A stretch of DNA of 64,000 nucleotides, from positions 1 to 64,000 of IMG/VR virus record IMGVR_UViG_3300010354_000079. One strand, 5' to 3'. Source of the DNA: a virus. Shown here piece after piece: positions 2,310-63,995 of this stretch (its first letter is position 1; every line of letters begins with the position of its first letter). Below the pieces are notes generated by a model that worked only from the letters and a program-made list of their open reading frames with translations, was not told the DNA's origin and made no database searches. The position numbers were made by a program, and so were the translations under genes.

Positions 2310-2390
2310 AATGTAACTATAGCGCTTTCAGCCCCCAGGGTAAAGGGGGGGGGGGTAAACCGCCCTTTAAGGGACGGTTAACCGCCTTGG
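2310..2390 (-). promoter_or_regulatory. cassette E1 (type B: two GGTWAACCGCC repeats + TTTACC -35 + TATAGT -10); contains 11-G tract
   Basis: minus strand: GGCGGTTAACC-N9-GGGCGGTTTACC(C)n-TTTACC-N17-TATAGT-N6-ATG. Confidence 0.55.
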
Positions 2391-3148
2391 GGCAGGTTAA
2401 AGTCCAGAGAGCAGAAGAGGATTTGCCGCCACCGTGAAATGAGCATCTCCGCGTAATCTCTTCGGGAAGGTGGATTGGATTGTGGATCTCGATTTTCATA
2501 GAGGCCGAGGGACCACCCATCATTGATCTCCACTAGCGAATACCCCCGTAAGTCTGACCTCCAACCGATGTCCACAGAGTAAGCACTCGGCCCAACCATT
2601 TCGTGCAAAAGTTTAGAAACTTCTCGAACCAAGAAATGGTCCGGTTCTGGATTATTAAAGTCCGTATCGTCATAGCGAGACCACCCAAGAACTTGAGGAC
2701 CGTTAACAAAGTCGTGTACGTAAAAGCGAAACTCGGACTCAAACCGCACAGGCTCACTGATCCAAACCAAAGTGTTTTCGGCAACAGAATCCGTTGAAGC
2801 CAAATCCTTTTTGATCGCTCCCGTAAATCGTTTGGTGCGCACAGGTTTCACAAACTCTTCATCCCCCGCTTCGGAAAGCATTCCACGCCGAATCTCGCGG
2901 GCCATGTAAGGCTCAAGGAAATCGTAGTGGAGTCCCTCTTCCGGAAGATTAATACCAATATGTTTGGCGTACTCCCGTGTGAACTCTACCGAGCCTACGG
3001 GAACATGCGAGAGCTTAAAGCATTTCGCATCGATTTCCGCAATTTCATCGAATGTTCTCGACACACAGGGATAGGGGGAGCAAACGCAAGCGAACTTTTC
3101 CGTATGCATAATGTCTCCTCTCTGAAGCAGAAAATGGAGTTCTTTCAC
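2378..3148 (-). CDS. ATP-grasp fold enzyme (putative)
   Basis: motifs FVKPVRTKRFTG (Lys in VKP), VWISEP, YSVDIGW...LVEINDGWSLG resemble ATP-grasp K / E-x-N signatures. Confidence 0.45.
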   Translation of the reverse strand: MKELHFLLQRGDIMHTEKFACVCSPYPCVSRTFDEIAEIDAKCFKLSHVPVGSVEFTREYAKHIGINLPEEGLHYDFLEPYMAREIRRGMLSEAGDEEFVKPVRTKRFTGAIKKDLASTDSVAENTLVWISEPVRFESEFRFYVHDFVNGPQVLGWSRYDDTDFNNPEPDHFLVREVSKLLHEMVGPSAYSVDIGWRSDLRGYSLVEINDGWSLGLYENRDPQSNPPSRRDYAEMLISRWRQILFCSLDFNLPQGG

Positions 3149-3149
3149 G

Positions 3150-3746
3150 TCACTCTGAGAGATTATGTTGAAGCATGTTACAGAAAATTACCCCTTGTTC
3201 AAGAGCATCTTGTTCAGCAATGTGGGAGTGCTTGACTTTTGCCGGAAACCAGTGTCTTGGGTAGTTTCTCTTTACCGACTCTCGATAACCCTTCTTTAGA
3301 AGGGCCATTGCATAGGTCTTTCCATCGAGAGCTGAAAAGCTGAATGGAGATTTACCCGTGAATCGAATGAGATACCAGTAAACAAAAAGGAAGTCAAATC
3401 CTGCAGGAAACCCTACGAAAACCGGATTTGCTTTCTTAGTCATTCCCTGGGGAGTGTACCGTGTCAAGACTTTTTCAGCCCACTCTGAAAACTGCTCCAT
3501 AGCTGCAGCTGGGTCAACTGGGTTTCTTCGGCACTGTTCGTAAGCGTCCCGATTCTCTTTTTGAGACCACCATTCCGAGGTTTTAGGATCGGGAGAGGAT
3601 TCGGGAAGAGGTTCTAAATTGACTGAAAAAGTTTCGAGAAGTGCCCCGTTTGATAGAAAGGCGGCACTTCCGAGAGAAAGCATACTGTTGGGACCGGGAA
3701 TGGGACCGTCGGTTTCAACATCCGTGCTAAAGTAGATTTCAGTCAT
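3150..3746 (-). CDS. DEDD-family 3'-5' exonuclease
   Basis: N-terminal [25 protein letters not shown] resembles the DnaQ/oligoribonuclease Exo I motif. Confidence 0.5.
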
Positions 3747-3827
3747 AGTCAGAAAAAGCTCCTAAGATAAACAGGGTTAGACCAAACAAAAGGAAAAACG
3801 CAGCGATCGTAAGCATAGGAAGACGGA

Positions 3828-4457
3828 TTAAACAATGAGAGAGTTAGGAATAAATTTCTGACTCCTCCAGTGCTTACCCGTCTGAACATGTCCCTCTCGA
3901 ACAAACTTCGCAACAGAGGTTCCGAAGTCGTCATAGTGGAAAGACTGGGCGTATCGAACTACATACCCTTCGACTTTTGTTGTGTCCAGGGAATTTGCGA
4001 TTTCCCGAATCTTCTTCTCGTTCCACTCTCCATTGTATAGGACAGGGACAGAGCAGATTCCCAGCATCGAGAAAAAGTCCTGGGTATCTTCCCAGGAAAG
4101 TGCACAGTTCCTTTCATCCCAAACGCTAAACCCGTAAAAATACGACTTCAGGTCTGAGTAGGAAATACTGTGACGAGCCCACAGATTCTCTCCGCAAATA
4201 CGCCAACCGACTGGAATCTCGTGACGAATCTGAGCCCAGAACTGTTTCACCCAGGCCCGGTCCTCTCCGCCTTTGCTATCGAGGCTGCGAGCATGGATGT
4301 GGTCGCTATACAAGGTTGTATTCTCTCCGTCCATTTTCTCGGTTACAACAACCGTGCGACCCACAAAACTTTGAACGCTCGAAAGGACTTTGTCGTCACT
4401 CGTGACTGCCTCCGACCAGGGCAGGTGGAAGGTTCGAGGGTATTTTACGTGAGCCAT
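3828..4457 (-). CDS. ATP-dependent RNA ligase (PF09414-like, small)
   Basis: KYPRTFHLPWS and EKMDGEN (KxDG nucleotidyltransferase motif I); start trimmed to MAHVKY because cassette E2 lies inside the ORF-track N-extension. Confidence 0.6.
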   Translation of the reverse strand: MAHVKYPRTFHLPWSEAVTSDDKVLSSVQSFVGRTVVVTEKMDGENTTLYSDHIHARSLDSKGGEDRAWVKQFWAQIRHEIPVGWRICGENLWARHSISYSDLKSYFYGFSVWDERNCALSWEDTQDFFSMLGICSVPVLYNGEWNEKKIREIANSLDTTKVEGYVVRYAQSFHYDDFGTSVAKFVREGHVQTGKHWRSQKFIPNSLIV

Positions 4458-4479
4458 CTCTCGAGCACCTGAACGTAAC

Positions 4480-4526
4480 CTACTATAGGGCCATCCCCGA
4501 AACGCGTAAAGGGCGGGTTCCCGCCC
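4480..4526 (-). promoter_or_regulatory. cassette E2 (type A palindrome GGGCGGGAACCCGCCC + TTTACG + TATAGT)
   Basis: TATAGT 24 nt upstream of RNA ligase ATG. Confidence 0.5.
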
Positions 4527-4608
4527 TCTCCAGGATCGCTCCAGGGGAGCCATCTGTTTTGGTAACCCATTGGGCCACCCCACCCGAGAGCCCGCCTTTC
4601 CGGACTCC

Positions 4609-6105
4609 CTAGGCCTGGCTGGGGAGGACCTCGAGAAACTCCCAACCGGCTCCCGGTGGGTCCCTAAACAGCTTTACCTCTTTCGTCGTAACGTTTCGAT
4701 ACGGGGAAGAAAGCTTCCAGTTTGAGTTGCTACAGTGCTCTAACCCTTTCCCTCTCTTGAACTCTCTCCACTCTGTTGAGACCCACATTTCCGGCCACAC
4801 ACCGCGCCATTCTTTGTGCCTCTTTCCCTTTTCCGGTAAATTCTCAATCGAGTACCGCATAAACTCCCGTCTACAATCTTCGCACTCAAGCTTTTCCAGA
4901 TATATCATGTTTTCTCGAGAGTAAAACACGAGCGAGATGCGTTCCGCATCCTCTGACATCTTAACCATTTCTGTGTTTCCATGAAGAAGAGTTTGAGTAT
5001 CGCCAGCGATGAAATCCCCATCCCGTAAATCAAAGGCGAGCCTTAACTCGGGAAAGACAAGGTAGTGTCCTTCGTAGTTACCTCTTGTCAAAGCTGTGAG
5101 AACGGCAAGAGCGCCTTTCAGGTTATTCTTGTCAACGTGGTAAGCAGTCCGAAAGTTAAAATTTAGGGTAATGCTTGTGAACGCAGTTCCGAACAAGTTG
5201 TAAGCGGGTTCCGAAACACGGGAAATAACGTCGCGAACGGATTGCCAGGTGAGTGGAAAAGTCTGACGAAAGCCTTCGCAAGCAGCAAAGTATATAGGCT
5301 GGTAAAGGGAGAAGCTATCGTAAAATTTCACGGTCGTCCCACTGAGTCGCCCGTAAGGAAATCTGCACCCTCGGTCTATGGCACCAAGAACATTGCTATA
5401 GCAATGGTTAAAGTTTAGCTGGATACTAATGAAGTTATCCATCGCGTCTTTCGTGGTTTGAACTTTGTTTTCCGATGGCAACCACTCGTTCTCAAGCCAG
5501 GGGTCAAACCATCCCCACAGAATCTTTCGCTTTCGAGAGATAAGATCTTTGCGATCTTCTTCCTGGAGGTCTTTCCTTTTAAGTTCTCGATCTACCTCTT
5601 TCAAAGTTTCTTTCACCTTAGGAAAAGCCTTCACAACTTGTTTCAGCTTTACCGTTTTGGTCGTGAGCTCGTCGGAACTATTTAGAACGTCTCTTGCTTG
5701 TTCCAGGGTTGTGAGTAACCCGGCACAAGACTGAGCAAAGAACGCAACCTGCCCCTTTGTCAGGCGAGCTTCAGGTCTTGTAGTAAACTCTGTTCCTGCG
5801 ACGACACCTCTCTGGGTTCCGTACACTTCACGAGAGGCTTTACGAAAGAACTCCCAAACGTCGGGTTGTTTCTCTCGTCCGTCTTTGAGTAAGGGAAACA
5901 AGGACTTTCGAAATGCCAGAACTTTTTTACCATCGACGAAAACGTCGCAATCCTCGCGAATGACCTCGTCGTAGTCTGACTCAGTGGGAAACTTGCCAAC
6001 ATATTCACTTTTAGAGCACAGTGCGAGTTCTTCTCGTGTTATCTTTCGTGGGTTGGTTCTTGAGCGCAAGTCTCTATCAATTTCTTCCCTAGTCTCTCTG
6101 TTCAT
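4609..6105 (-). CDS. TET/JBP-family 2OG-Fe(II) dioxygenase (nucleic-acid base hydroxylase)
   Basis: AYHVDKNN (HxD), LLHGNTE (distal His) and ERISLVFYSR; RISLVFY matches the 2OG-binding Arg segment I recall from human TET2 (HPTRISLVFYQHK). Confidence 0.6.
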   Translation of the reverse strand: MNRETREEIDRDLRSRTNPRKITREELALCSKSEYVGKFPTESDYDEVIREDCDVFVDGKKVLAFRKSLFPLLKDGREKQPDVWEFFRKASREVYGTQRGVVAGTEFTTRPEARLTKGQVAFFAQSCAGLLTTLEQARDVLNSSDELTTKTVKLKQVVKAFPKVKETLKEVDRELKRKDLQEEDRKDLISRKRKILWGWFDPWLENEWLPSENKVQTTKDAMDNFISIQLNFNHCYSNVLGAIDRGCRFPYGRLSGTTVKFYDSFSLYQPIYFAACEGFRQTFPLTWQSVRDVISRVSEPAYNLFGTAFTSITLNFNFRTAYHVDKNNLKGALAVLTALTRGNYEGHYLVFPELRLAFDLRDGDFIAGDTQTLLHGNTEMVKMSEDAERISLVFYSRENMIYLEKLECEDCRREFMRYSIENLPEKGKRHKEWRGVWPEMWVSTEWREFKRGKGLEHCSNSNWKLSSPYRNVTTKEVKLFRDPPGAGWEFLEVLPSQA

Positions 6106-6522: not shown

Positions 6523-7116
6523 TCACTGCCGGTAGATGAACTTTTTGTCAAAGGCGGCTTTGGCAACCGTCTTCATCTTGAGCGCGATATCCAGATCCGG
6601 AACCAGGGTGATCGGATTATCCAGAAGCTGAGGGAGAATTGAAGGTGCTTTCTCCGTAACTTCTTGATCTTGAAAATGAACCCGGTATTCGGTGCCAATC
6701 TCTTCACAGATGGCGTTGATCGCCATGGCTTTTTCGATAAAGTTGGCGCCGTGGCCCTGAACTCCGTCATCAAGACCCTTGGTGTGAAGGTACTTGTGAA
6801 CCATCTCGTGAAGCAAAACGCTTCGGGTCGCGATCGGGTCGACCGCGATCTTTCGAGAAAGACGAATGGTCTTATCTTTGTAAGAGTAGACGCCGTAAGT
6901 CCTCTTACCAAGCCTTCCATCCCACTTCAGAGTTCCGTAAGAAGTTCGTACCTCACCGTTTTCGTCGGTAAAGGTGTGGGAAGGGAGGATAGGGAGTTCG
7001 CCGTTGAAAAAACGAGCGTTAAACTCTGCATACAGATCACCAAGGTCATACATCACCGTGGAATCCGGGCAGAAAGCTGTGAAAAAGGAATTCGAGAGTT
7101 GAGTTTTGAATTCCAC
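6523..7116 (-). CDS. SprT-like zinc metallopeptidase
   Basis: LLHEMVHKYLH (HExxH) and N-terminal FNARFFNGELP typical of the SprT family; GTG start. Confidence 0.55.
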   Translation of the reverse strand: MEFKTQLSNSFFTAFCPDSTVMYDLGDLYAEFNARFFNGELPILPSHTFTDENGEVRTSYGTLKWDGRLGKRTYGVYSYKDKTIRLSRKIAVDPIATRSVLLHEMVHKYLHTKGLDDGVQGHGANFIEKAMAINAICEEIGTEYRVHFQDQEVTEKAPSILPQLLDNPITLVPDLDIALKMKTVAKAAFDKKFIYRQ

Positions 7117-7151
7117 TTTTTCTAGGGGGGAAGCGGAGGTCGGTCACACCT

Positions 7152-7199
7152 TTACTATAGGTGTTACAGCGGAGTTCTGTAAAGGGCGGGTTCCCGCCC
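7152..7199 (-). promoter_or_regulatory. cassette E3 (type A)
   Basis: GGGCGGGAACCCGCCCTTTAC...TATAGT upstream of SprT-like gene. Confidence 0.5.
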
Positions 7200-7210
7200 T
7201 TCCCAAGAGG

Positions 7211-7393
7211 TCAGCCGAATTCGAAATAGACTTCCTCTACTCGATTCCAGCGAGTGATCGAAGGGCCAGAGTAGACGGTCACAGGCTCACGGAGAACTTC
7301 CGACAGTTCAAGAGCGGTGTCTCGAGCAACGTCCACCTGAGTGAAAGGACCCTCAGCGAAGGAGCATTCAGACGCGGTCCAGTAGAGAGACAT
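7211..7393 (-). CDS. hypothetical protein (60 aa)
   Basis: ATG 24 nt downstream of TATAGT of cassette E4; stop abuts cassette E3. Confidence 0.4.
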   Translation of the reverse strand: MSLYWTASECSFAEGPFTQVDVARDTALELSEVLREPVTVYSGPSITRWNRVEEVYFEFG

Positions 7394-7404
7394 GGCACCC
7401 GTTT

Positions 7405-7474
7405 CGAAGACCCCCTTACTATAGGGCTTATCGGAACGAAAACAAAGGGGGTAAACCGCCCTTTAAAAGTAGGG
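7405..7474 (-). promoter_or_regulatory. cassette E4 (type B)
   Basis: GGGCGGTTAACCC-N-GGGCGGTTTACCCCCTTTG...TATAGT. Confidence 0.5.
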
Positions 7475-8104
7475 TTAACCGCCCTGCTGGAGGGCGTTAA
7501 AGTTTTTCAGAATCTTTTGACACTCTTCTGCTATTTGTTCTTCCCTTTGGCAACCGTCCACTGAAACTCGATAAGAGGGTGCAGTTCGTTCGTACCCGTC
7601 GTATACCCTCTCAAGGAAAAACTTTCCTTCTGCCTCAAAACGGTCATAACTTTGAGATCTACTACGAGTTCTATGAATTGACTCGTCAACTGGAATGTCA
7701 AAAAAGAGCTCCAGGTCCGGGTCGGGAAAACTGAAGGAAGAGAGAAGGTCCCTTACCCGTTCGACTCCAATACCTCGAGCGTAGCCTTGGTAGGCTAAAG
7801 TGCTTGAGATATAACGGTCGCAAAGGACCCAGTATCCCTCACTTAGGAGAGGCTCAATATATTTAGATACGTGCTGTACGCGATCAGCCAAAAGGAGAAG
7901 AAGTTCTGCCTCAGGGTGCAAGGACTCTCTTGTACTCTTCAGAATGTCCCTCACAGTGGGGATAAACCCTGGCTCTCTTGTGCGAATAACTTGGGAGTTT
8001 TTAGAAACCAGCCCGCTCTCTGGGAGCCATTCTTTCAAGCGTTTCAGCTGCGTGCTCTTTCCACTTCCGTCTAAACCTTCGAAAGTGATAAACTTTCCTC
8101 TCAT
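7475..8104 (-). CDS. tmk: thymidylate kinase
   Basis: FITFEGLDGSGKSTQ P-loop and DRY..S lid region; ~209 aa. Confidence 0.85.
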   Translation of the reverse strand: MRGKFITFEGLDGSGKSTQLKRLKEWLPESGLVSKNSQVIRTREPGFIPTVRDILKSTRESLHPEAELLLLLADRVQHVSKYIEPLLSEGYWVLCDRYISSTLAYQGYARGIGVERVRDLLSSFSFPDPDLELFFDIPVDESIHRTRSRSQSYDRFEAEGKFFLERVYDGYERTAPSYRVSVDGCQREEQIAEECQKILKNFNALQQGG

Positions 8105-9373: not shown

Positions 9374-9540
9374 TATACCCGTTTTTTAAGAAAGTAAACC
9401 CTATTGAGACTTTTTGTGCGAGAGACGAGGCAATCTCTGCGAGCTTTCGCTTGCTGGATAGCTCTCGGTTTGGATTTTCCTTTTTGCTTACGACCCTTCT
9501 CTCGAGGGCCGAGTTTGCAGCGAGTCGAGTCGTTTTCCAT
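9373..9540 (-). CDS. small highly basic protein (55 aa, MENDSTRCKLGPREKGRKQKGKSKPRAIQQAKARRDCLVSRTKSLNRVYFLKKRV)
   Basis: ATG 6 nt after TATGAT of cassette E5; stop overlaps next start by 1 nt; below the 60-aa ORF-track cutoff; replaces spurious 9258..9551. Confidence 0.45.
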   Translation of the reverse strand: MENDSTRCKLGPREKGRKQKGKSKPRAIQQAKARRDCLVSRTKSLNRVYFLKKRV

Positions 9541-9544
9541 GCAC

Positions 9545-9591
9545 CTATCATACCTGGTTACAGCAGGTGGGTAAAGGGCGGGTTACCGCCC
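9545..9591 (-). promoter_or_regulatory. cassette E5 (type A; -10 TATGAT, ATG +6)
   Basis: GGGCGGTAACCCGCCCTTTACccacctgctgtaaccaggTATGATaggtgcATG. Confidence 0.55.
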
Positions 9592-9597
9592 TAGGCT

Positions 9598-11548: not shown

Positions 11549-12022
11549 TTAGTGCACAAAGCGAACTTTGGAAAAACCCTCGTTGTAGATGTTCTTTATG
11601 GACGCCTCAAGGCTGGCGTGCATCTTTTCAATCACGTATTCGGGAACAAACCGAGGACGGGATGCGTTCTGATTAAGGCAGACCTTCAAAGGCTTGTAAA
11701 CGACGACTGCCACAACTTCGTCGTAACCATAAGAAAGAAGCATCTGAAGAGCGTCCTTACGGTAACGAGACTTGTAGTGAGTGTTATCCAGAATGATCGT
11801 CTTACCGACGTTGTCCTCCAGGATCTCGATCATACGATCGTGAATTTCGGAGTAGTTGCCCTGGATGTTTGGGTCGCCGTACAGCTCCTCGCGAATCGTG
11901 TCGCCGTTGATGATCACGGATCCCGGGATTTCCTTGTGGAGCTGGTTTGCCCAGGTGGACTTTCCGGAACCAGGGGCACCGACCATCATGTAGGCTTTCA
12001 TTGGAGAGGTTTTCTCGTTCAT
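11549..12022 (-). CDS. P-loop kinase, polynucleotide-kinase-like (possible 5'-OH kinase or hmU-DNA kinase)
   Basis: MMVGAPGSGKSTWA Walker A; start trimmed to MNEKTS, 6 nt after TATAAT of cassette E6. Confidence 0.55.
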   Translation of the reverse strand: MNEKTSPMKAYMMVGAPGSGKSTWANQLHKEIPGSVIINGDTIREELYGDPNIQGNYSEIHDRMIEILEDNVGKTIILDNTHYKSRYRKDALQMLLSYGYDEVVAVVVYKPLKVCLNQNASRPRFVPEYVIEKMHASLEASIKNIYNEGFSKVRFVH

Positions 12023-12026
12023 ACCC

Positions 12027-12094
12027 TTATTATAGCGCCAGCGCCTCCCTGAACAGGGCGGCAAACCGGCCACCCAAAGGGTGGGTTACCGCCC
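12027..12094 (-). promoter_or_regulatory. cassette E6 (type B variant; -10 TATAAT, ATG +6)
   Basis: GGGCGGTAACCCACCC...GGCCGGTTTGCCGCCC...TATAATaagggtATG. Confidence 0.5.
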
Positions 12095-12310
12095 TCAGCT
12101 GTTGCAGAAGAAGTGGTATTCCTCCAACCATTCTTGCAGAGGGTCGTCATTTATGACTTCCCCACTGTTTTCGACGTAGTCGCGAACCACCCACGCTTTC
12201 TCAGAGAACTCTCTCTCACTCCATGGGGGTTGTTGATCACCAATGGATAGACCTGATTTTCCGCGAGTTAAACGGAAAAGTTTTTTCTGAATGCGTAGAG
12301 GGTCTTTCAT
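12095..12310 (-). CDS. hypothetical protein (71 aa)
   Basis: ORF track; stop abuts cassette E6. Confidence 0.4.
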   Translation of the reverse strand: MKDPLRIQKKLFRLTRGKSGLSIGDQQPPWSEREFSEKAWVVRDYVENSGEVINDDPLQEWLEEYHFFCNS

Positions 12311-14974: not shown

Positions 14975-14992
14975 ACCTTCTTAATTAGTTTA

Positions 14993-15082
14993 TAGGCGCC
15001 TAGGGAATCGAACCCTAACTAGCCGGTAATCTGCCGGAGCGGTCCTTATAGGGGACCCTGTGCTACCTTACACCAGACGCCC
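14993..15082 (-). tRNA. atypical type-II tRNA-like gene (anticodon loop CCUAUAA)
   Basis: 7-bp acceptor stem GGGCGUC/GGCGCCU (2 G-U), D-arm GUGU-AAGGUA-GCAC, anticodon stem GGUCC/GGACC, long variable hairpin CCGG-CAGAUUA-CCGG, T-arm UAGGG-UUCGAUU-CCCUA; two nt between D and anticodon stems and C at position 33 are non-canonical. Confidence 0.45.
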
Positions 15083-15108
15083 AAATCAAAGGGCCAAAAG
15101 GCCCTCAA

Positions 15109-17815: not shown

Positions 17816-18643
17816 TCAGACCGCAGCCATTTCGAGAGCCACTTGCATTGCGCGAGTGTTGATTCCCCGACCGGAACCAAAGTTGGCGTAGTTGATACGA
17901 CCAGCCTCGGTCTTCTTGCTCCGATTAGAGCTGAAATCCGTTACGGCATTGAAGGCGTCGTAGAAGGTCCGCCCTTCGTTGCCGGCACCGTTGTAGAACA
18001 GATCGTTGAGCACTTCGATGTTTCGCATCTTCTCAGCGTCCTTTCGGTACGTCGTCTCAAGGAACGAGCGAAACTGCGAGGAAGTGCACGTGGATTTTGC
18101 GATGGTCTCCACACTCTCGGAGTACTTTTTCATCGCCGTATTCACAAAGTCGACCACCGCCGAGCTTTCCAGAATACGCTCGTTCACACCTTCCGAGTGG
18201 CGAAACTTTTCACCGATGTCGCTGTAAGCCATTGCGAATGTGTTACCGCAGATGACGCGAGTTGCGGTAGGACCGATTGCCACGGAAGCGTTTCCAACGT
18301 GTCCGTTGAGCAGAGTGATCATCGCACGATAATCCTCACCAACAACACGGAATTCCTCGTTCAGCGATGCTTGGATGAAAACGCGAGCACCATTCTGAAG
18401 GTACCCTTGATTGGCAATTGAAAGAACACCTTCAGAGACCATCGGTGAGATCAGGTTGTGAAGGCTTTCGTTCTGAACCGTCTCGTAATTGGCCGAAACG
18501 TAACCGAGGCGAGCGTCGGTGTCATCACGGTGCACGGCGACGAGTTTGGGGTCCGGAACCCATTCCCCTTTGAAGTTCATGCTGGCAACAGCTCGATTGC
18601 TGACGGTCCAGTTGAGGTCGTTGGTGATTGCGAAAGCAGGCAT
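17816..18643 (-). CDS. hypothetical protein (276 aa; phage/plasmid-type)
   Basis: start trimmed to MPAFAITNDL because cassette E8 lies inside the ORF-track N-extension. Confidence 0.5.
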   Translation of the reverse strand: MPAFAITNDLNWTVSNRAVASMNFKGEWVPDPKLVAVHRDDTDARLGYVSANYETVQNESLHNLISPMVSEGVLSIANQGYLQNGARVFIQASLNEEFRVVGEDYRAMITLLNGHVGNASVAIGPTATRVICGNTFAMAYSDIGEKFRHSEGVNERILESSAVVDFVNTAMKKYSESVETIAKSTCTSSQFRSFLETTYRKDAEKMRNIEVLNDLFYNGAGNEGRTFYDAFNAVTDFSSNRSKKTEAGRINYANFGSGRGINTRAMQVALEMAAV

Positions 18644-18667
18644 CGGTTTCTTGAGCTTGTTACCTAA

Positions 18668-18735
18668 GTAGTTTAGCGGGAATCGAGGCGAAGGCAAAGG
18701 GGGTAAACCGCCCTCCTGAGGGGCGGCTTTCACCC
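18668..18735 (-). promoter_or_regulatory. cassette E8 (type B; -35 TTTGCC, -10 TAAACT)
   Basis: GGGTGAAAGCCGCCCC-N-GGGCGGTTTACCCCCTTTGCC-N17-TAAACT. Confidence 0.45.
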
Positions 18736-18933
18736 TTGGGCAGCTAGGCAGCTATCGTACACTTCGAGAAGGTGGGCCATTGCATCCTCTGCTTCCTCCA
18801 GTGTGGAGAAGACAGGGGAAATGTTTTCACAAGAGTACGAAAATTCGCCGAGTTTTACGGTTTCCTGCAGAAACCAATTCCCGGAGACCGGATCAAAGCG
18901 AATGGAGACCTGGATTGTGGGATTGACTTTCAT
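18730..18933 (-). CDS. hypothetical protein (67 aa)
   Basis: ATG immediately after TATACTtatagt of element E9. Confidence 0.4.
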   Translation of the reverse strand: MKVNPTIQVSIRFDPVSGNWFLQETVKLGEFSYSCENISPVFSTLEEAEDAMAHLLEVYDSCLAAQG

Positions 18934-19002
18934 ACTATAAGTATAGCCCCATCCCCCGAAAAAGTATAGGACGGGAAACCGTACCCGAGGTACGGGAAAC
19001 CC
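18934..19002 (-). promoter_or_regulatory. cassette E9 (variant repeats GGGTTTCCCGTACC / GTACGGTTTCCCGTCC; TATACT)
   Basis: TATACTtatagtATG. Confidence 0.45.
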
Positions 19003-19005
19003 TAC

Positions 19006-19314
19006 TCAGCCAGCTTGCTCTCTCTTTTTTCTGGCTCGCTCTCGAAGTTCACGCGCGAGTCTTTGAATTGACCTATTATGTTTTCTTCCGCCTGCCATTA
19101 AGCGAGCGGCGTGTTGTTCGTCTTCTGAAGCTTCAGTCTTAAGCTTTGTAGGGTTCACCGGAATGTTCGGGGGAAGGCATTTTCCTGCCGTTCCGAAGCT
19201 GGACCCATCTGGGCGAACGCAGCGTGTGAAATCGTAGTTTTCAGCTTCGCTGAAGTTTTCGGACGCCAAGTGATGGAAAATTTGTAGGCTCTCTTCTGAG
19301 AAAGATCCTTGCAT
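19006..19314 (-). CDS. N-module family protein (short, basic C-terminus)
   Basis: MQGSFSEESLQIF...YDFTRCVRPDGSSFGTAGKC shared with five other loci. Confidence 0.5.
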   Translation of the reverse strand: MQGSFSEESLQIFHHLASENFSEAENYDFTRCVRPDGSSFGTAGKCLPPNIPVNPTKLKTEASEDEQHAARLMAGGRKHNRSIQRLARELRERARKKREQAG

Positions 19315-20110: not shown

Positions 20111-20159
20111 TCTGCAGTCTAGGGCACTGACCTAAGCTTAGGGTTAAGCTGATATGAAC

Positions 20160-20272
20160 GGAACCGGCAGGACTCGAACCTGCAACCTCTCCTTTAACCT
20201 AGGGATTTGTACTGCTGATGTATCTTTGACAAGATAGCTTTATAGCGCTCTATCCAGTTGAGCTACGGTTCC
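20160..20272 (-). ncRNA. elongated tRNA-like gene f (~113 nt)
   Basis: acceptor GGAACCG/CGGUUCC, D-arm GCUC-AACUGGAUA-GAGC, T-arm GCAGG-UUCGAGU-CCUGC, with ~45-nt insert containing hairpin UAUCUU-GUCA-AAGAUA and CAGCAG. Confidence 0.5.
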
Positions 20273-20303: not shown

Positions 20304-20430
20304 GTCGAAGGGGCAAGATTCGAACTTGCGTATGGCGGTCCCTTTAGCGTATAGTTAATTGCTGAATCATCACTTAACTCGATGATCTTTTTTGCATTAC
20401 CGCTGCCTAACCACTTGGCTACCCTTCGTC
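20304..20430 (-). ncRNA. elongated tRNA-like gene e (~127 nt); anticodon-stem GCGGU/ACCGC brackets a 59-nt segment beginning AAUGCAA
   Basis: acceptor CGAAGGG/CCCUUCG, D-arm GCC-AAGUGGUUA-GGC, T-arm GCAAG-UUCGAAU-CUUGC; insert contains hairpin GAUCAUC...GAUGAUU and CAGCAA. Confidence 0.5.
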
Positions 20431-20527: not shown

Positions 20528-20546
20528 TCTTTGTTTTGCAAAGAAC

Positions 20547-20663
20547 GCCAAAATCAGGAATCGAACCTGAGCTACCTCCTGAACATGGATTATTGGAGAT
20601 TGCTGTCCGGACCTTATACAAGGTCACCGATTTTTAAGCGTGCTACCACTACACTATTTTGGC
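20547..20663 (-). ncRNA. elongated tRNA-like gene c (~117 nt)
   Basis: perfect acceptor GCCAAAA/UUUUGGC, U8A9, D-arm GUGU-AGUGGUA-GCAC, T-arm UCAGG-UUCGAUU-CCUGA; insert has hairpin GACCUU-GUAU-AAGGUC then GGUCCGGACAGCAA. Confidence 0.5.
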
Positions 20664-20766: not shown

Positions 20767-20789
20767 TGAAATTTCCGTCTAACGGAAAT

Positions 20790-20904
20790 TGGGGAAGAAG
20801 GAATCGAACCTCCATCACGTCCGCATGAATGGAATTTGTGTAATTGCTGTCTGTATCTTACCAAGATAACTGAATTACGTGTGCTACCATTGCACCATTC
20901 CCCG
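20790..20904 (-). ncRNA. elongated tRNA-like gene a (~115 nt; C1-A72 mismatch)
   Basis: acceptor CGGGGAA/UUCCCC(A), U8G9, D-arm GUGC-AAUGGUA-GCAC, T-arm GGAGG-UUCGAUU-CCUUC; insert has hairpin UAUCUU-GGUA-AGAUA then CAGACAGCAA. Confidence 0.45.
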
Positions 20905-26266: not shown

Positions 26267-26270
26267 AAAC

Positions 26271-26316
26271 CTACTATAGCCGCCTGGGCCAAGGAAGTAA
26301 AGGGCGGGTTACCGCC
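26271..26316 (-). promoter_or_regulatory. cassette E10 (type A)
   Basis: GGGCGGTAACCCGCCCTTTAC...TATAGT upstream of phosphoesterase gene. Confidence 0.5.
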
Positions 26317-26317
26317 C

Positions 26318-26632
26318 TCACCCACGGCGTCTCCGTTGGCGCTTCTGGGGAGGTTTTGCCGGCTCGGCGGGGAAGGCCTGCGACTCAGGCTGGAAGGACC
26401 TTGGTGGCTCGTCCAGGACGCTCAGGGACCATCGCAGAGCGGGCAGCAAGAGAGCCCTCAGCGTTTCCAGCAACTGGGTTACAACAGCGGCTGTTAGAAC
26501 CAAAAAGACAGCGGTTGTTGACACCAGATTCACTGTCTGGTCGGCGAGACCTTTTGCGTTAAAGTTTTTCACGTTGGTTTGATCAAGAGTTAATGTTCTG
26601 TTCCACCTCTCGGTTTTTGGTGCGCAGGGCAA
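26318..26632 (-). CDS. hypothetical protein (104 aa)
   Basis: ORF track. Confidence 0.35.
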   Translation of the reverse strand: MPCAPKTERWNRTLTLDQTNVKNFNAKGLADQTVNLVSTTAVFLVLTAAVVTQLLETLRALLLPALRWSLSVLDEPPRSFQPESQAFPAEPAKPPQKRQRRRRG

Positions 26633-29197: not shown

Positions 29198-29203
29198 AGC
29201 AAA

Positions 29204-37732: not shown

Positions 37733-37896
37733 ACAAAAAGCTTCGGTAATCCACGGAAAACTTACGCTGCCAGACTACTCCAGGCAGTAATTTAAATAAA
37801 TCACAGGAAACTAAAAAAGTCGCTTTTTCACCGGGCTGAAGCCAAACGGGGTTACTAGCGGGCTCCCTGACTAGGGAAGAAGTTAGAAGCTTGGCG

Positions 37897-42352: not shown

Positions 42353-43270
42353 CTAAGCGGCACTGCGAAGGTAGGAAACGTTCTGAGGAATGGCGTCGTA
42401 GAATGAATTGTTGGGAAGAAGATTTGCAACGTAGAAGGTGTCGATCAGATTGTCGAAAACCTCAAAACTCTTTGAGAAAATCCCGTGAGTGACATAAAGG
42501 TCGATTCGAGAAGGATTGTGTTTACGAAGAACTTTTGCCAGCTCAACAAAGGTTCTACCACCATCGCAGATATCATCCACAATCAAAAGGGGCTTTCCTG
42601 CGTAGGATACTTCAGTGGGAACATCGGTTCTCAGGATTTGCCCATTCTCAGGGTTTCTGACTTTGGTCGCATAAACCACTGAGCTGAGACCGAGTTCTTT
42701 CTGAGCCAAGGTAGCACGCTCAACGGCACCTTTGTCAGGGGCAATCACGATTGTGTCGGAGGGAAACCTCGCTCCCCCTCGGCAAAAGTCTCGAAGAAGG
42801 GAGTCTGGCTTGACGTTGAACAACGTGCAACCTTCCTCTCGGAAAAGACTGGAAGCGACTGGGCTATGCGCATCCCAAGTTATGACTTTATCGCTTACAC
42901 TGAGGTATGGCGCCAAAGCCTTCACAAAGACAGACAGGGAGAAAGCTTCCCCTTCGACACAAGCTCGGTCTTGCCTACTATACGGGAGATACGGGAGTAT
43001 AAGCTCTATTTCACACGTAATGGGTAGGCGACAGAGGGCGTCAAGGGTGAGCAGAAGTTCGACAAATGATCCGCTATCATGAATGTCTGCGTTGACAATC
43101 ACTTTCTCGAGCTTGGGGATAGTGTTCAATCGGACTTGAGTCTCCCCCGCACTAAAATGAAAAGAGGAATTTTTAAGGATTCCGATTCCGTCAGGGGTAA
43201 TTCCCATGATTTCAATCGGCTTCCTCTTTCGAAGGCTGATCATTTCGTCGCTCTTAATCAAGACTTTCAC
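42353..43270 (-). CDS. prs: ribose-phosphate pyrophosphokinase (PRPP synthetase)
   Basis: LLIVDDICDGGRT PRPP-binding motif; FSAGETQVRL N-domain; directly downstream of nadV; GTG start. Confidence 0.75.
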   Translation of the reverse strand: MKVLIKSDEMISLRKRKPIEIMGITPDGIGILKNSSFHFSAGETQVRLNTIPKLEKVIVNADIHDSGSFVELLLTLDALCRLPITCEIELILPYLPYSRQDRACVEGEAFSLSVFVKALAPYLSVSDKVITWDAHSPVASSLFREEGCTLFNVKPDSLLRDFCRGGARFPSDTIVIAPDKGAVERATLAQKELGLSSVVYATKVRNPENGQILRTDVPTEVSYAGKPLLIVDDICDGGRTFVELAKVLRKHNPSRIDLYVTHGIFSKSFEVFDNLIDTFYVANLLPNNSFYDAIPQNVSYLRSAA

Positions 43271-43299
43271 TTTTCTGCACTCAGCTTAGGTCGTTTTTC

Positions 43300-43350
43300 G
43301 GTGTTCGGATAGCGGGCAAACCGTCCTCCTTGGGGCGGGTTCCCGTCAAC
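43300..43350 (-). promoter_or_regulatory. cassette-like element E15 between small membrane gene and prs
   Basis: GACGGGAACCCGCCCC-AAGGAG-GACGGTTTGCCCGC. Confidence 0.4.
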
Positions 43351-44720: not shown

Positions 44721-45200
44721 TCAAAGGCGGGACACACACACGTTAGCAAGACCGCTTTCGGTAACACCCAGTTGACTGGCGGCTCCGTGGCCGAGGTCAA
44801 TTATTCTACCACCGACATATGGCCCACGGTCGTTGATTCGGACGTCGGCTACACGGCCATTGTCCTTGTTTCGAACTCGAACCCATGTCCCCATGGGAAG
44901 TGTGGGATGCGCTGCGGTCATAGTTCCACGGCGATAGACCTCTCCGTTTGCAGTCAGGTTTCCGTAGAATCCTGGACCGTACCAACTGGCTTGCCCGCAT
45001 TGTGCAGCATTTGCTGGAGTTGCAAGAGGCAAACAAAGAGCGGAAGCAAGGGCCAGTTTGGATAAAATTCGCATTGAAAAAGAAGAACTCAACATTCGTG
45101 TTTGTTGCTTTTGGCAACCACGACTCTCAGCCTGTCTTTCCAGGCATGAAACCATGATAGCTGGTTCGAGAGAGTCTGTAAAGGACGGGAAACCGGCCAT
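44721..45200 (-). CDS. RlpA-like DPBB lipoprotein
   Basis: ASWYGPGFYGNLTANGEVY...AAHPTLPMGTWVRVRN...VRINDRGPY; likely start at internal MRILSKLALASALCLPLA signal peptide. Confidence 0.55.
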   Translation of the reverse strand: MAGFPSFTDSLEPAIMVSCLERQAESRGCQKQQTRMLSSSFSMRILSKLALASALCLPLATPANAAQCGQASWYGPGFYGNLTANGEVYRRGTMTAAHPTLPMGTWVRVRNKDNGRVADVRINDRGPYVGGRIIDLGHGAASQLGVTESGLANVCVSRL

Positions 45201-51195: not shown

Positions 51196-51216
51196 AGGGG
51201 GGCCGAAGCCCCCCGA
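51196..51216 (-). terminator. GC hairpin + U tract at the 3' end of the tmRNA coding piece
   Basis: CGGGGGGCUUCGGCCCCCC-UUUC. Confidence 0.45.
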
Positions 51217-51445
51217 GTGAGTCAGAGTGCGTTGCTCAAACGGCAACCGCAGTCCTCTCAAATTTGACGATTTTGTTAGCGTCTATTTTGTGCTTATGCA
51301 AGCGGCTTTCACTTAGGTGACAATTTCGCCCCGTCGAAACCTTTGCAGCCCCGTGAGAGCCCCGAAGGGCGGAGGCAAAAGTGGAACTGAACGGACTCGA
51401 ACCGTTGTCCGAAGCGGCGTCCTCCCAAGCTACACCTAGTTTAGA
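51205..51445 (-). ncRNA. ssrA: two-piece (circularly permuted) tmRNA gene
   Basis: acceptor piece ...CUUCGGACAACGGUUCGAGUCCGUU-CAGUUCC-A (T-arm + 3' acceptor strand) lies upstream of coding piece GGGGCUGCAAAGGUUUCGACGGGG... (5' acceptor strand pairs with CAGUUCC via 2 G-U); resume context AAAAUAGAC-GCU AAC AAA AUC GUC AAA UUU GAG AGG ACU GCG GUU GCC GUU UGA gives tag ANKIVKFERTAVAV; ends with GC hairpin GGGGGGCUUCGGCCCCCC-UUUC. Confidence 0.6.
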
Positions 51446-51467
51446 GTCTTACGGTAGGACTGTAAAA

Positions 51468-51688: not shown

Positions 51689-51937
51689 TCAGGCAACGAG
51701 TGCAGGACGACGAAAGGCAACCCAGCCCCTATCACGAAAGTACTCAAACTCCGCTACCAAAGTGTATGAGCGGTCCAGATTCTGCTCTTCCAGGGCAGCC
51801 CTTTCCAAGAAGATAAAGTCCCCGGATTTCAAAAGATCGAGGGCGTGGGAAACGATGTAGAGGAAAGGCTCAGGGGAGTCGAAACCAACGATCTTGGTTA
51901 CCACGTTGCCTGAGACGGAGAGCCTGTAGTGTTTCAT
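51689..51937 (-). CDS. hypothetical protein (82 aa)
   Basis: ATG 6 nt after TATGAT of cassette E16. Confidence 0.4.
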   Translation of the reverse strand: MKHYRLSVSGNVVTKIVGFDSPEPFLYIVSHALDLLKSGDFIFLERAALEEQNLDRSYTLVAEFEYFRDRGWVAFRRPALVA

Positions 51938-51941
51938 GCCT

Positions 51942-51988
51942 TAATCATAGCCGCTCGCACCACGAGCGTAAAGGGCGGGAAACCGCCC
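51942..51988 (-). promoter_or_regulatory. cassette E16 (type A; TATGAT, ATG +6)
   Basis: GGGCGGTTTCCCGCCCTTTACG-N17-TATGATtaaggcATG. Confidence 0.55.
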
Positions 51989-52267
51989 TCAGAGTCCAAG
52001 GTTTTCGAGTTCCTCTTGGGAGAGCCTTTTGTTTTCAGCCCTCCTTCGCTTCGGGTGAAGAACCTTATCACTATGGCAAACTTTACATCTTGGGTTGCCG
52101 CAGTCTAAGGGGTCACTGGACATTGCCCTACCGAAGCAATACATCTCAATATAGGAGGGACTAAAGTCGAGACTCCCTAAAAGTTTTTTCCAGTTTTTGT
52201 GGAGTCTTTCGGTGTGGTGCCTTCGAATTGCTGCTTTTGCCATATCAGGAAAACTGTCCGGAGTCAA
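51989..52267 (-). CDS. hypothetical Cys-containing protein (92 aa)
   Basis: ORF track. Confidence 0.35.
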   Translation of the reverse strand: MTPDSFPDMAKAAIRRHHTERLHKNWKKLLGSLDFSPSYIEMYCFGRAMSSDPLDCGNPRCKVCHSDKVLHPKRRRAENKRLSQEELENLGL

Positions 52268-53940: not shown

Positions 53941-53970
53941 GACTGGACCCAAGAGGCGGGACTCAACCCT

Positions 53971-54039
53971 TTATTATACCTCTTTTCTCGGCAAGGGTGG
54001 GTCGGTAAACCGGCTTCTCCTTGGGCGGGTTCCCGCCCT
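53971..54039 (-). promoter_or_regulatory. cassette E17 (type A + GGTTTACC repeat; TATAAT)
   Basis: GGGCGGGAACCCGCCC...CCGGTTTACCGACCCACCCTTGCC...TATAAT. Confidence 0.5.
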
Positions 54040-62871: not shown

Positions 62872-63177
62872 TCAGTAAACGTAGACGCTTTTACGTTCCC
62901 TCTCGCGAAGGTAGCTGGAATACCAAGTGTGAGCGCTCCCCGAACTTACTTCGCTCACCATGTTTCGGAGAATCCACTCCCGTTTCGAGGGCTCCGAGGA
63001 ATTTCGAAACTGAACGTAACAGAAGCCAGCCCAATAATCCAGAAAGGTGGAATCCTCACTAGGAAAAAGGGATTGAAGTAAGGACCCAAGCTCGGTTCTT
63101 GCCTCGTATCCCGCCCTCACTCTTAAAACGGCTTTTTGGACAAGGCTCTCTTGGTTTTGAGACAGACAGGTTTCCAT
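62872..63177 (-). CDS. hypothetical protein (101 aa)
   Basis: ATG 6 nt after CATAAT of cassette E18. Confidence 0.4.
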   Translation of the reverse strand: METCLSQNQESLVQKAVLRVRAGYEARTELGSLLQSLFPSEDSTFLDYWAGFCYVQFRNSSEPSKREWILRNMVSEVSSGSAHTWYSSYLRERERKSVYVY

Positions 63178-63181
63178 ATCC

Positions 63182-63228
63182 CTATTATGGGGCTAAGGGG
63201 CGTAAAAGTAAAGGGCGGATAACCGCTC
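63182..63228 (-). promoter_or_regulatory. cassette E18 (type A variant; CATAAT, ATG +6)
   Basis: GAGCGGTTATCCGCCCTTTACT-N17-CATAATagggatATG. Confidence 0.5.
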
Positions 63229-63473
63229 TATCCAAACTCGCAAATGTTTGGAGGCGCTCCCTCCTTGTGGAGGCGAATTAGTTCAGCTTCTAGCTCTGGA
63301 GTCCAGCGAGACTGTGAGCGAAGATACCAAACGTCGGTCGCACAGCCTTTTGAGCAATCCAGCTCTTTCGCCAAGTCATCAAAGTATGAATTCATACTTT
63401 CGTAATACTCATTATAAGTTTTATCCTCCTCTGGGTCAGGAACACGAGTCTGGGACAGGGAAGATAGACCCAT
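63228..63473 (-). CDS. hypothetical protein (81 aa)
   Basis: ORF track. Confidence 0.35.
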   Translation of the reverse strand: MGLSSLSQTRVPDPEEDKTYNEYYESMNSYFDDLAKELDCSKGCATDVWYLRSQSRWTPELEAELIRLHKEGAPPNICEFG

Positions 63474-63498
63474 AGTCTTTGTTTCAGAAAGATGAAAA

Positions 63499-63588
63499 CG
63501 GAAAGTCAGGGATTCGAACCCTGGGGGCCGCTTACGCGACCCAACGGTTTAGCAAACCGTCGCCTTAAACCACTCGGCCAACTTTCCA
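63499..63588 (-). tRNA. tRNA-Ser (anticodon GCU), type II
   Basis: acceptor GGAAAGU/ACUUUCC, anticodon arm ACGGU-UUGCUAA-ACCGU, long variable arm, T-arm CAGGG-UUCGAAU-CCCUG. Confidence 0.7.
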
Positions 63589-63595
63589 AGTTAAA

Positions 63596-63678
63596 CGGAA
63601 GGCACAGGGATCGAACCCGTGAGGCTTTTACACCCGACTGTTTTCAAGACAGCTCCCTCGACCAACCGGACGCCTTCC
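63596..63678 (-). tRNA. tRNA-Ser (anticodon UGA), type II
   Basis: acceptor GGAAGGC/GCCUUCC, anticodon arm GCUGU-CUUGAAA-ACAGU, 16-nt variable arm, T-arm ACGGG-UUCGAUC-CCUGU. Confidence 0.65.
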
Positions 63679-63712
63679 AATCGTTCGATGAAAGTTTACC
63701 CCCCGAAAGGGG

Positions 63713-63904
63713 TTAATTCACCTCCACTTCTTTCATCACGTACGAATCGTATTTCAACACATCACCGTCATCATCCACGTATTCACCCTTAACTAACGAC
63801 TCTCCGTACTTAATTCCGTCTTCATAGTTGAAGAACACTTTACCCGAGAATTCCACGTAATCTCCTTCGTAATCCATCGATCCCACAACCATCCACACTT
63901 TCAT
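63713..63904 (-). CDS. hypothetical protein (63 aa)
   Basis: AAGGAAGG SD 4 nt upstream; preceded by 6-codon leaderless mini-ORF from cassette E19. Confidence 0.45.
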   Translation of the reverse strand: MKVWMVVGSMDYEGDYVEFSGKVFFNYEDGIKYGESLVKGEYVDDDGDVLKYDSYVMKEVEVN

Positions 63905-63921
63905 TTTCCTTCCTTTTCCAT

Positions 63922-63995
63922 GCTATAACTATAGCGCTTTTCGCGACTGAGGTAAAGGGGGTAAACCGCCCCTGGAGGTAGGGTTAACCGCCCCT
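63922..63995 (-). promoter_or_regulatory. cassette E19 (type B; TATAGT, leaderless mini-ORF)
   Basis: GGGGCGGTTAACCC...GGGGCGGTTTACCCCCTTTACC...TATAGTtatagcATG. Confidence 0.55.

Follow-up and report, generated by a model that had tools for sequence, protein, structure and literature searches.

The viral DNA analysed here, positions 1 to 64,000 of the IMG/VR record IMGVR_UViG_3300010354_000079 (designated as the window), carries a reiterated intergenic element, which we call the cassette. The window possesses 19 cassettes, all of which lie on the minus strand (19/19) and at gene boundaries (19/19), and their layout runs from a GC-rich hairpin through TTTNNN, a 17-nt spacer and a TAnnnT hexamer to an ATG that often begins 6 nt on. 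We consider it probable, from the sequence, that the cassette is an early terminator/attenuator–promoter element resembling the promoter-early stem-loops (PeSLs) of T4-like phages, and that most copies place AUG at the transcription start. By the gene matches described below, the phage is classed as an uncultured cyanophage, distantly related to Synechococcus phage S-CBWM1 (Aokuangvirus, MG450654).

Copy number and start-codon geometry of the cassette

When up to 3 mismatches were allowed, the palindrome GGGCGGGAACCCGCCC matched 18 times in the window, as compared with 0.40 matches expected from shuffles (maximum 4). A strict regular expression, consisting of a C-run, T(T/A)T(A/G)(C/T)N, 16–18 nt and (T/C)ATNNT, found 15 distinct minus-strand sites and 0 on the plus strand. 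The degenerate or composite copies at 12078, 18698, 43333 and 54022 were added by a position weight matrix scan and inspection, giving the total of 19. Repeat finding returned families that cover the hairpin, the −35 and −10 elements, the spacer and the first codons, and a scan at Rfam gathering thresholds found no family at the cassettes. Every copy has a stop codon on one side and the next gene on the other, and none lies inside a real open reading frame (ORF). The upstream stop codon is often part of this arrangement: TGA adjoins GGGCGG in three copies (51991, 26320 and 12097), TAG adjoins the element at 63230, and in two copies of the hairpin type designated as B (7477 and 2380) the TAA of the upstream gene is the TAA of GGTTAACC. 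The original prediction, made from the letters of the window, had described at least 19 copies that share one direction on the minus strand, occupy intergenic gaps, combine TTTAC(C/G)/TTTGC(T/C), a 17-nt spacer and a −10 hexamer, and in several cases have the upstream gene ending inside the palindrome; these features were confirmed, the promoter part being sigma-70-like and the upstream genes ending at or inside the element.

The feature that distinguishes most copies is the position of the start codon. ATG begins exactly 6 nt past the hexamer in 11 of the 19 cassettes (binomial p = 9e-16 at 1/64), and in nine copies this +6 ATG (2309, 9540, 12022, 18933, 26266, 29125, 32734, 51937 and 63177) opens a real ORF of 55–244 codons. 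One further copy (36808) has ATG at 7 nt, and seven (4510, 7183, 7446, 18698, 37693, 43333 and 54022) have no productive +6 start and show leaders of 6–31 nt. The window was pooled with about 20 related IMG/VR contigs, which gave 83 distinct cassettes: 63 of them (about 76%; p ~1e-95) have ATG exactly at +6 and another has it at 7 nt, the start codon of the former group is ATG in 63/63 cases, and it opens 38–363 codons in 61 of the 63. The remaining offsets are mostly 20–28 nt, and the cassettes thus fall into two main classes. Two domain positions support the assigned starts, namely the GDIH motif at residues 10–13 of the metallophosphatase ORF from ATG 26266 and the P-loop (AAA_33) domain, which in the ORF from ATG 12022 begins at residue 12. 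In addition, the second codons are A-rich in the information profile of the cassettes. A sigma-70-type −10 hexamer occupies positions −12 to −7, and a 6-nt gap after it therefore makes the A of ATG +1. By this geometry, the ATG of the +6 copies is at the expected +1, which would leave no room for a Shine-Dalgarno (SD) sequence.

The promoter-like part, TTTNNN-N17-TAnnnT, is present in 81 distinct copies. The −10 hexamer varies among TATAGT, TATACT, CATAAT, TATGCT and TATGAT with A2 and T6 invariant, a degeneracy of the sigma-70 type, and a G at −14 is conserved across the cassettes. A generic promoter scan called 10 cassettes promoter-like, with no overall enrichment over shuffles.

A scan of IMG/VR for GGCGGTTTACCCCCTTTRC yielded 31 loci on about 20 viral contigs, the largest 277 kb long. 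The same sequence had 4 scattered matches in 185,579 bacterial species genomes (Streptomyces, Alcaligenes and a metagenome-assembled gut genome), none of them cyanobacterial, as compared with a chance expectation estimated at about 9; the bacterial matches are therefore at chance level, and the cassette is not a host repeat. A blastn search of the consensus cassette against cultured phages gave chance-level 18-nt matches only, and a match in S-CREM2 was rejected as an ordinary terminator. The cassette was absent from the regions of T4-like cyanophages that were examined (41 kb of B3 and 40 kb of S-CREM2).

This distribution bears on the possibility that the cassette is a dispersed repeat of a selfish or neutral kind, similar to miniature inverted-repeat transposable elements or repetitive extragenic palindromes, which has no regulatory role and whose −10/ATG geometry was simply inherited with the repeat. 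Many near-identical copies, the occurrence of degenerate ones and the indel boundaries that copies mark (see below) would all be expected of such an element. However, copies inside ORFs or in random orientation, which the original prediction had named as the signs of a selfish repeat, were not found in the window, where 0 of 19 are inverted and every one is placed between a stop and a start. Moreover, long ORFs whose N-terminal domains are properly placed begin at the +6 ATG, positions 2 and 6 of the −10 hexamer are invariant while the others vary, and bacterial genomes lack the sequence beyond chance matches. We regard a selfish repeat as extremely improbable.

Hairpin, promoter use and related phages

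RNAfold predicted cassette hairpins with minimum free energies of −14 to −30 kcal/mol, mostly with z-scores of −2 to −4, which end at the TTT of the −35 element. Type A forms a 6–8 bp GC hairpin with a tetraloop, and type B forms one long imperfect hairpin of ~18 bp (−18 to −30 kcal/mol), the 3' side of which reaches into CCCCCTTT. The original prediction had a GC-rich palindrome in type A and two direct repeats in type B; the former holds, but the RNAfold structures show the latter to be the two sides of a single hairpin, which look like direct repeats because GGTTAACC is self-complementary. The arms occur in two flavours, GGGCGG/CCGCCC and GTACGG/CCGTAC, and matched combinations are enriched, although this tally is suggestive, not decisive. 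In the related contig L001 the arms are fully compensated (TA/TA/TA), and the double change from GG/CC to TA/TA keeps the pairing. We regard the hairpin as real and efficient termination at it as putative.

In the reading that we favour, the cassettes would split an early, ORFan-rich region into about 19 transcription units of one to a few genes. The GC hairpin, ending in CCCCC or CCGCCC plus TTT, would form in the read-through RNA of the upstream unit and would attenuate or terminate its transcription or stabilise its 3' end. The TTT of the hairpin would also begin a weak −35-like hexamer, with the TAnnnT −10 element 17 nt on and G at −14, and the promoter would be read by the host RNA polymerase and its primary sigma factor in early infection, as its sequence and the presence of an S-CBWM1 cassette upstream of a sigma gene suggest. 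With +1 at the A of AUG, as the geometry indicates, the mRNA would have neither a 5' untranslated region nor an SD sequence and would be translated as a leaderless message. Finally, the cassettes may act as recombination linkers, because ~70–90 bp are conserved between copies, and whole modules of cassette plus ORF would be gained, lost and swapped by a mechanism analogous to that of PeSLs.

Several observations weigh against parts of this reading. As to termination, the tract after the hairpin is short, TTT(A/G/C)N, and a generic terminator scan therefore called none of the cassettes (0). With respect to the U-rich tract of intrinsic terminators (at least 5 of 8), the copies have the hairpin, their tails vary between TTTACTTT-like and TTTCGAAA, and the scan called none of them. 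Canonical long-T terminator-like hairpins, with sequences unlike those of the cassette hairpins, occur at other gene ends on the minus strand (6197–6169, 35676–35664, 40831–40807, 44713–44694 and 56006–55978). As to pairing, the commonest type-B variant is the mixed GG/TA/GG (13/40), which has mismatches in both candidate stems, and RNAalifold on the 40 type-B copies gave a weak consensus of −2.3 kcal/mol and no covariation; the weak consensus arises because the registers differ between type-B variants. As to the promoter, the "−35" element is conserved as TTT alone (TTTCGA in 14 copies) and is otherwise weak, and the information profile peaks at the hairpin arms and CCCCCTTT, beyond what sigma-70 would need. 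Likewise, the stem GGGCGG/CCGCCC is kept across phages whose proteins are 35–60% identical, which exceeds the need of a generic terminator. As to the start codon, the original prediction had listed at least nine cases at 6 nt, and this stands in so far as 11 of the 19 have the spacing and nine open real ORFs; the +6 ATGs at 63921 and 45147 (2/19), however, open just six codons. Lastly, leaderless mRNAs are a minority in picocyanobacteria: 6–8% of primary transcription start sites (TSSs) lie within 10 nt of a start codon in Prochlorococcus, and 19 leaderless transcripts have been reported in S. elongatus UTEX 2973. Given this minority status, the use of leaderless mRNAs for most early units by a phage clade would be noteworthy. 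A literature search for leaderless cyanophage genes gave only citations of GeneMarkS-2, and one combining leaderless, bacteriophage and early promoters gave no match.

The deep conservation and the poor T-tract are what the main rival draws on, without positive evidence of its own. This explanation holds that the GC palindrome and repeats (CGG-N4-CCG, GGTTWMCC) are operators that bind a dedicated phage or host protein and switch the early regulon, for example at early shut-off. The site would be centred near −43, with a second near −65, and the hairpin potential would be a by-product of dyad symmetry. Such a site would account for arms that are nearly invariant over the window, S-CBWM1 and about 20 IMG/VR contigs although protein identity is 35–60%, for loops that vary while CGG/CCG stays fixed, for the common mixed-flavour arms that weaken pairing, and for conservation that runs into the spacer (G-CCAAAA-GCGC), past the need of sigma-70; the type-B CGG cores are a constant 22 bp apart, about two helical turns, and the T-tract is poor for termination. 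On the other hand, no candidate regulator was identified, one long hairpin explains the "direct repeats" since GGTTAACC is self-complementary, and the TA/TA compensatory variants keep the pairing yet alter the putative recognition sequence. Type A would have one site and type B two with the downstream promoter unchanged, concerted evolution by recombination between copies can explain conservation within a genome, and the stems of the RB49 PeSLs are also G-runs and C-runs. The GGTTWMCC half-sites that the original prediction took for an operator gained no specific support, as the repeats are the flanks of one hairpin in the RNAfold structures. We rate the operator as unlikely. A broader scenario, which we consider quite unlikely, is that the early regulon was converted clade-wide to 5'-AUG leaderless mRNAs for host takeover, with a dyad-binding factor that coordinates the switch-off of the set; early messages could then bypass host S1- or SD-dependent initiation, and phage factors could perhaps bias ribosomes or initiation factors toward leaderless mRNA.

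The relationship with S-CBWM1 rests on several matches. A 3-kb segment of the window had no megablast match among cultured phages (INPHARED), and the phage therefore has no close cultured relative. A Pol-gamma-type family A polymerase on a related contig has its best tblastn match in S-CBWM1 (57% identity), and almost all of its matches are cyanophages. In the window, 16 ORFs match S-CBWM1 genes at 35–60% identity, with partners within 2.7–31 kb of that genome. Another related viral contig, L016, encodes an SLH-OprB outer-membrane porin (2825–4321), an unusual phage cargo; such porins are typical of cyanobacteria.

In S-CBWM1, 14 homologous cassettes were found that read (CCTGGGGAG)GGGCGGTAAACCGCCC-TTTACA-N17-TAAGCT/TAAAGT, almost all co-oriented with genes, of which 12 lie at 2.6–40 kb of the 139-kb genome, its early, tRNA-rich part, and one lies just upstream of the phage sigma gene gp142. 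These differ from the window cassettes, which mostly have the +6 ATG, in the −10 hexamer (TAAGCT/TAAAGT) and in being leadered: in 13 of the 14 the leader is 12–55 nt long, often starting with the small inverted repeat GACTACAGTCAG, and the only ATG-at-+6 copy precedes a tRNA. The window copy at 43333 is also of the leadered TAAGCT type. These homologues and copy 43333 indicate that the cassette is old in the lineage and that the leaderless layout is derived in the clade of the window.

Other S-CBWM1 genes carry a second motif, GGGTAAA(A/C)(T/C), which is located 26–31 nt before start codons, including those of the portal, capsid and sheath genes. In S-CBWM1 (L036–L038), GGGTAAA has 43 copies on the coding strand and 6 on the other; the minus strand of the window has 21 copies (e.g., 61897, 58119, 53174, 49934, 46338, 40746, 38344, 33486, 31327, 19344 and 63701), and about 11 of the 21 are intergenic. 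From its placement, GGGTAAA is probably the middle/late promoter of the lineage, read by phage sigma factors (gp142 and gp152 in S-CBWM1). Since GGGTAAA marks the structural and other genes of S-CBWM1, the cassette is an early-region feature rather than one of the whole genome. The "genome-wide" units of the original prediction were thus overstated, considering that 12 of 14 S-CBWM1 cassettes are confined to 2.6–40 kb of 139 kb and other genes use GGGTAAA; the 64-kb window alone cannot show whether cassettes are genome-wide.

An N-terminal peptide, DF(T/A)RCVRPDG(S/T)xYG(T/S)xGKCRKGTE, is common to at least six otherwise different window proteins, one of them NMNAT-like. The ORFs start at 61866, 49909 (two copies), 48332, 33456 and 19314, with a remnant at 38252–38186, and five intact ones are located behind the GGGTAAA motif. 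The peptide has no Pfam match and might serve as a signal for capsid targeting or injection or form a small Cys knuckle. An assignment of the coding repeat family D1 to homing endonucleases was considered and rejected, the family being a shared N-terminal peptide motif.

The same data are relevant to the possibility that a phage-directed polymerase, with a phage sigma factor or in modified form, reads the cassette promoters, the hairpin and CCCCCTTT being part of its recognition element. S-CBWM1 does encode the sigma factors gp142 and gp152, and a weak −35 element combined with a strongly conserved upstream block would suit such an enzyme. However, the −10 element shows the classic degeneracy of group-1 sigma sites at 17 nt from a T-rich −35, and GGGTAAA (about 30 nt before ATG, 43 versus 6 copies) is a better candidate for a phage-sigma promoter. 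A cassette upstream of the sigma gene itself is, furthermore, what would be expected if the host enzyme reads cassettes first. Transcription by a phage-directed polymerase is, in our estimation, improbable.

The role of the cassettes as module boundaries was seen by comparing one trio of related contigs (L015, L020 and L026). Relative to L015, L020 has an extra 387-bp unit, comprising a cassette, a small leaderless ORF and TGA, inserted exactly between the upstream TGA and the next cassette. At another junction, L020 has an additional 915-bp gene-plus-cassette unit, and there the gene that follows the shared cassette gives way to a different one beyond its first five codons. The indels between contigs are whole cassette-plus-ORF units bounded by cassettes. 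In L001, 8 cassette copies are packed into 5 kb.

Individual cassettes and neighbouring genes

All coordinates in the window given below are on the minus strand, and starts called leaderless are predicted from the +6 spacing. Four type-B copies have a leaderless ATG. The copy at 2307–2388 (−35 TTTACC 2344–2339, −10 TATAGT 2321–2316) precedes ATG 2309 (152 aa) and contains an 11-C run in the hairpin. This homopolymer (2345–2355) separates the proximal hairpin arm from the −35 element at a place where other copies have 5–6 C, and suggests slippage, which would move the hairpin away from the promoter. The copy at 18931–19008 is of the GTACGG/CCGTAC flavour (−35 TATACT 18968, −10 TATACT 18945–18940; ATG 18933, 67 aa). 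The other two are at 29123–29200 (−35 TTTGCT 29160, −10 TATAGT 29137–29132; ATG 29125, 77 aa) and 32732–32810 (−35 TTTGCT 32769, −10 TATAAT 32746–32741; ATG 32734, 56 aa).

Leaderless type-A copies are located at 9538–9593 (TAGGGCGGTAACCCGCCC; −35 TTTACC 9575, −10 TATGAT 9552–9547; ATG 9540, 55 aa) and at 63175–63230 (TAGAGCGGTTATCCGCCC; −35 TTTACT 63212, −10 CATAAT 63189–63184; ATG 63177, 101 aa). In two more, the upstream TGA adjoins the hairpin: 26264–26319 (−35 TTTACT 26301, −10 TATAGT 26278–26273), where ATG 26266 opens the 244-aa metallophosphatase ORF, and 51935–51990 (−35 TTTACG 51972, −10 TATGAT 51949–51944), where ATG 51937 opens 82 aa. The composite copy at 12020–12096 consists of the hairpin GGGCGGTAACCCACCC followed by GGCCGGTTTGCCGCCC, a weak −35 TGTTCA and −10 TATAAT 12034–12029, and the ORF that begins at its leaderless ATG 12022 encodes a P-loop kinase of 157 aa. 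The 55-aa ORF 9540–9373, which starts with MENDS, and the 56-aa ORF 32734–32564, which starts with MKNDS, have similar flanking cassettes (repeat family D7); they are probably paralogues duplicated along with their cassette.

Among the remaining copies, the type-B cassette at 36770–36849 (−35 TTTGCT 36808, −10 TATAGT 36785–36780) has its ATG at 7 nt (36772), which opens a 365-aa ORF for a T4 Rnl1-like RNA ligase. The type-A copy at 4455–4528 (GAGGGCGGGAACCCGCCC; −35 TTTACG 4510, −10 TATAGT 4487–4482) has no start at +6; the gene behind it, RNA-ligase-like, starts at ATG 4457 (MAHVKYPRTFHL) after a ~18-nt leader with AGGTG. Another type-A copy, at 7114–7201 (−35 at 7183, 18-nt spacer, −10 TATAGT 7159–7154), has a GTG at +6 that opens only 33 codons, and its 197-aa gene starts from GTG 7116 or later. 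Type-B copies with displaced starts are at 7391–7486 (−35 TTTGTT 7446, −10 TATAGT 7423–7418; ATG 7393, 24 nt past the hexamer, behind a short leader) and at 37640–37734 (−35 TTTACT 37693, −10 TATATT 37670–37665), which has ATA at +6, its nearest ATG at 37642 (55 aa) and the next gene start at 37468. The copy at 18641–18731 has a single middle hairpin, CCGCCC-CTCAGGA-GGGCGG (−35 TTTGCC 18698, −10 TAAACT 18675–18670); ATG 18643 lies 26 nt past the hexamer and opens 275 aa, and homologues align from the Met at 18643.

Two further composites were found. The S-CBWM1-like copy at 43268–43348 comprises GACGGGAACCCGCCC, GACGGTTTGCCCGC, TATCCG, 17 nt and TAAGCT 43288–43283, followed after a 12-nt gap by GTG 43270 of a PRPP synthetase gene. 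The copy at 53950–54038 comprises GGGCGGGAACCCGCCC, CCGGTTTACCGACCC and TATAAT 53978–53973, followed by a TTG start at 53952 after a ~14-nt leader.

The two copies in which the +6 ATG is unproductive are one with a degenerate hairpin at 45072–45199 (GGCCGGTTTCCCGTCC; −35 TTTACA 45182, −10 TATCAT 45159–45154) and a type-B one at 63902–63996 (−35 TTTACC 63956, −10 TATAGT 63933–63928). In the former, ATG 45147 opens six codons (MPGKTG*), and the RlpA-like gene starts from ATG 45074 with a signal peptide. In the latter, ATG 63921 opens six codons (MEKEGK*), the TGA of which overlaps the real start ATG 63904 (AATGA); this start is preceded by a 17-nt purine-rich leader, and the homologue of the same gene in the related contig L008 is leaderless. 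Both real starts were assigned by comparison with homologues. In both mini-ORF cassettes (63921–63901 and 45147–45127), the +1 ATG and the long ORF differ in frame by one nucleotide; a frameshift mutation, an indel from assembly or true coupling via an upstream mini-ORF could account for this.

The window has a GC content of ~48%, nearly every gene is on the minus strand, and the recognisable genes have the character of a phage early/auxiliary region. Their products include a Tet/JBP dioxygenase, two to three RNA ligases, a P-loop kinase, a metallophosphatase, NAPRTase, PRPP synthetase, a DUF2828/TROVE protein, a subtilase and an RlpA-like protein, and there are also tRNAs and a permuted transfer-messenger RNA (tmRNA). 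The two-piece tmRNA is located at 51198–51462 (Rfam cyano_tmRNA, 76 bits with a gathering score of 70; tmRNA_permuted, 82 bits), and ARAGORN predicted its tag peptide as ANKIVKFERTAVAV. Four tRNA-like genes of 114–125 nt (20159–20272, 20546–20663, 20789–20904 and about 20304–20428) were read in the ARAGORN intron mode as Leu, Leu, Trp and Val, with anticodon-loop insertions of 24–52 nt, and tRNA-Ile(tat) at 14992–15083 is unusually long (92 nt). These overlong genes may be intron-bearing or otherwise atypical phage tRNAs. Tet/JBP-type dioxygenases are encoded in the window (4609–6105) and in the related contigs L007 (8849–11680) and L023 (4439–5803), and one relative encodes an amino-acid:DNA transferase (ADDT), which suggests hypermodified DNA bases in the phage clade.

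Significance and comparison with known systems

If the TSS is the A of AUG, the cassettes would make each genome a natural source of dozens of leaderless mRNAs for work in cyanobacteria, in which translation initiation is poorly understood and largely SD-independent. S-CBWM1, with the same cassette but leaders of 12–55 nt on 13 of 14 copies, offers a built-in evolutionary comparison. The findings would also extend PeSL-type "mobile regulatory cassettes" past T4-like phages to a second, unrelated myovirus lineage. With a terminator, a promoter and a start codon in about 50–90 bp, such a module, free of a ribosome-binding site, would be about the most compact portable expression unit possible and a candidate part for cyanobacterial synthetic biology. 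Gene calling is affected as well: standard gene finders mis-start ORFs behind leaderless cassettes, and the mechanical ORF calls in the window ran through several cassettes.

The closest known counterparts are the PeSL cassettes of the T4-like phages RB49/phi1, T4/PST and KVP40/nt-1 (Arbiol et al. 2010, PMC2839356; Comeau et al. 2014, PMC4122927). PeSLs are composite terminator/promoter motifs in hyperplastic regions that mediate modular shuffling; the T4/PST element has the promoter consensus TTTACW-N17-TAYWAT with a stem-loop just upstream, and the RB49/phi1 stem-loops are G-run/C-run (PMC2839356, PMC4122927). The window cassettes share the stem-loop joined to a sigma-70-like early promoter with 17-nt spacing, the many conserved intergenic copies that are co-oriented with genes in plastic, ORFan-rich regions (19 in 64 kb), and the indels and replacements between close relatives that are bounded by cassettes. 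The main departure is that a PeSL ends with an SD sequence and a start codon, whereas 63 of the 83 cassettes here have neither leader nor SD sequence. In addition, the hairpin of the window cassettes adjoins the −35 element and shares its TTT, and the carrier phage is not T4-like but a relative of Aokuangvirus with a Pol-gamma-type family A polymerase. Measurements of promoter, terminator and mini-circle activity exist for PeSLs (PMC2839356, PMC4122927), whereas the window cassettes are known from sequence alone. Judged by these features, the cassette would be a leaderless variant of a PeSL-like element, a known kind of element and not a new kind.

Two other systems share part of this design. 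The morons of lambdoid phages resemble the cassette-plus-ORF units in being autonomous single-gene transcription modules between resident genes; morons have no conserved flanking linkers (discussed in PMC2839356), whereas it is the conserved cassette that delimits the units here. In leaderless genes of Deinococcus-Thermus, the −10 motif adjoins the ORF (PMC12340547).

Leaderless transcripts of middle and late genes were reportedly described in the Thermus phage phiYS40 by Sevostyanova et al. in 2007, and the lambda cI message from PRM is leaderless. The window cassettes are similar to these and to the Deinococcus-Thermus genes in that TAnnnT stands a fixed few nucleotides before the start, with the predicted TSS at AUG and a −35 element at 17 nt that would enhance activity. 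They differ from the Deinococcus-Thermus and phiYS40 cases in the host phylum, which is cyanobacteria, and in that the leaderless layout is tied to a repeated hairpin cassette and belongs to early rather than middle or late genes.

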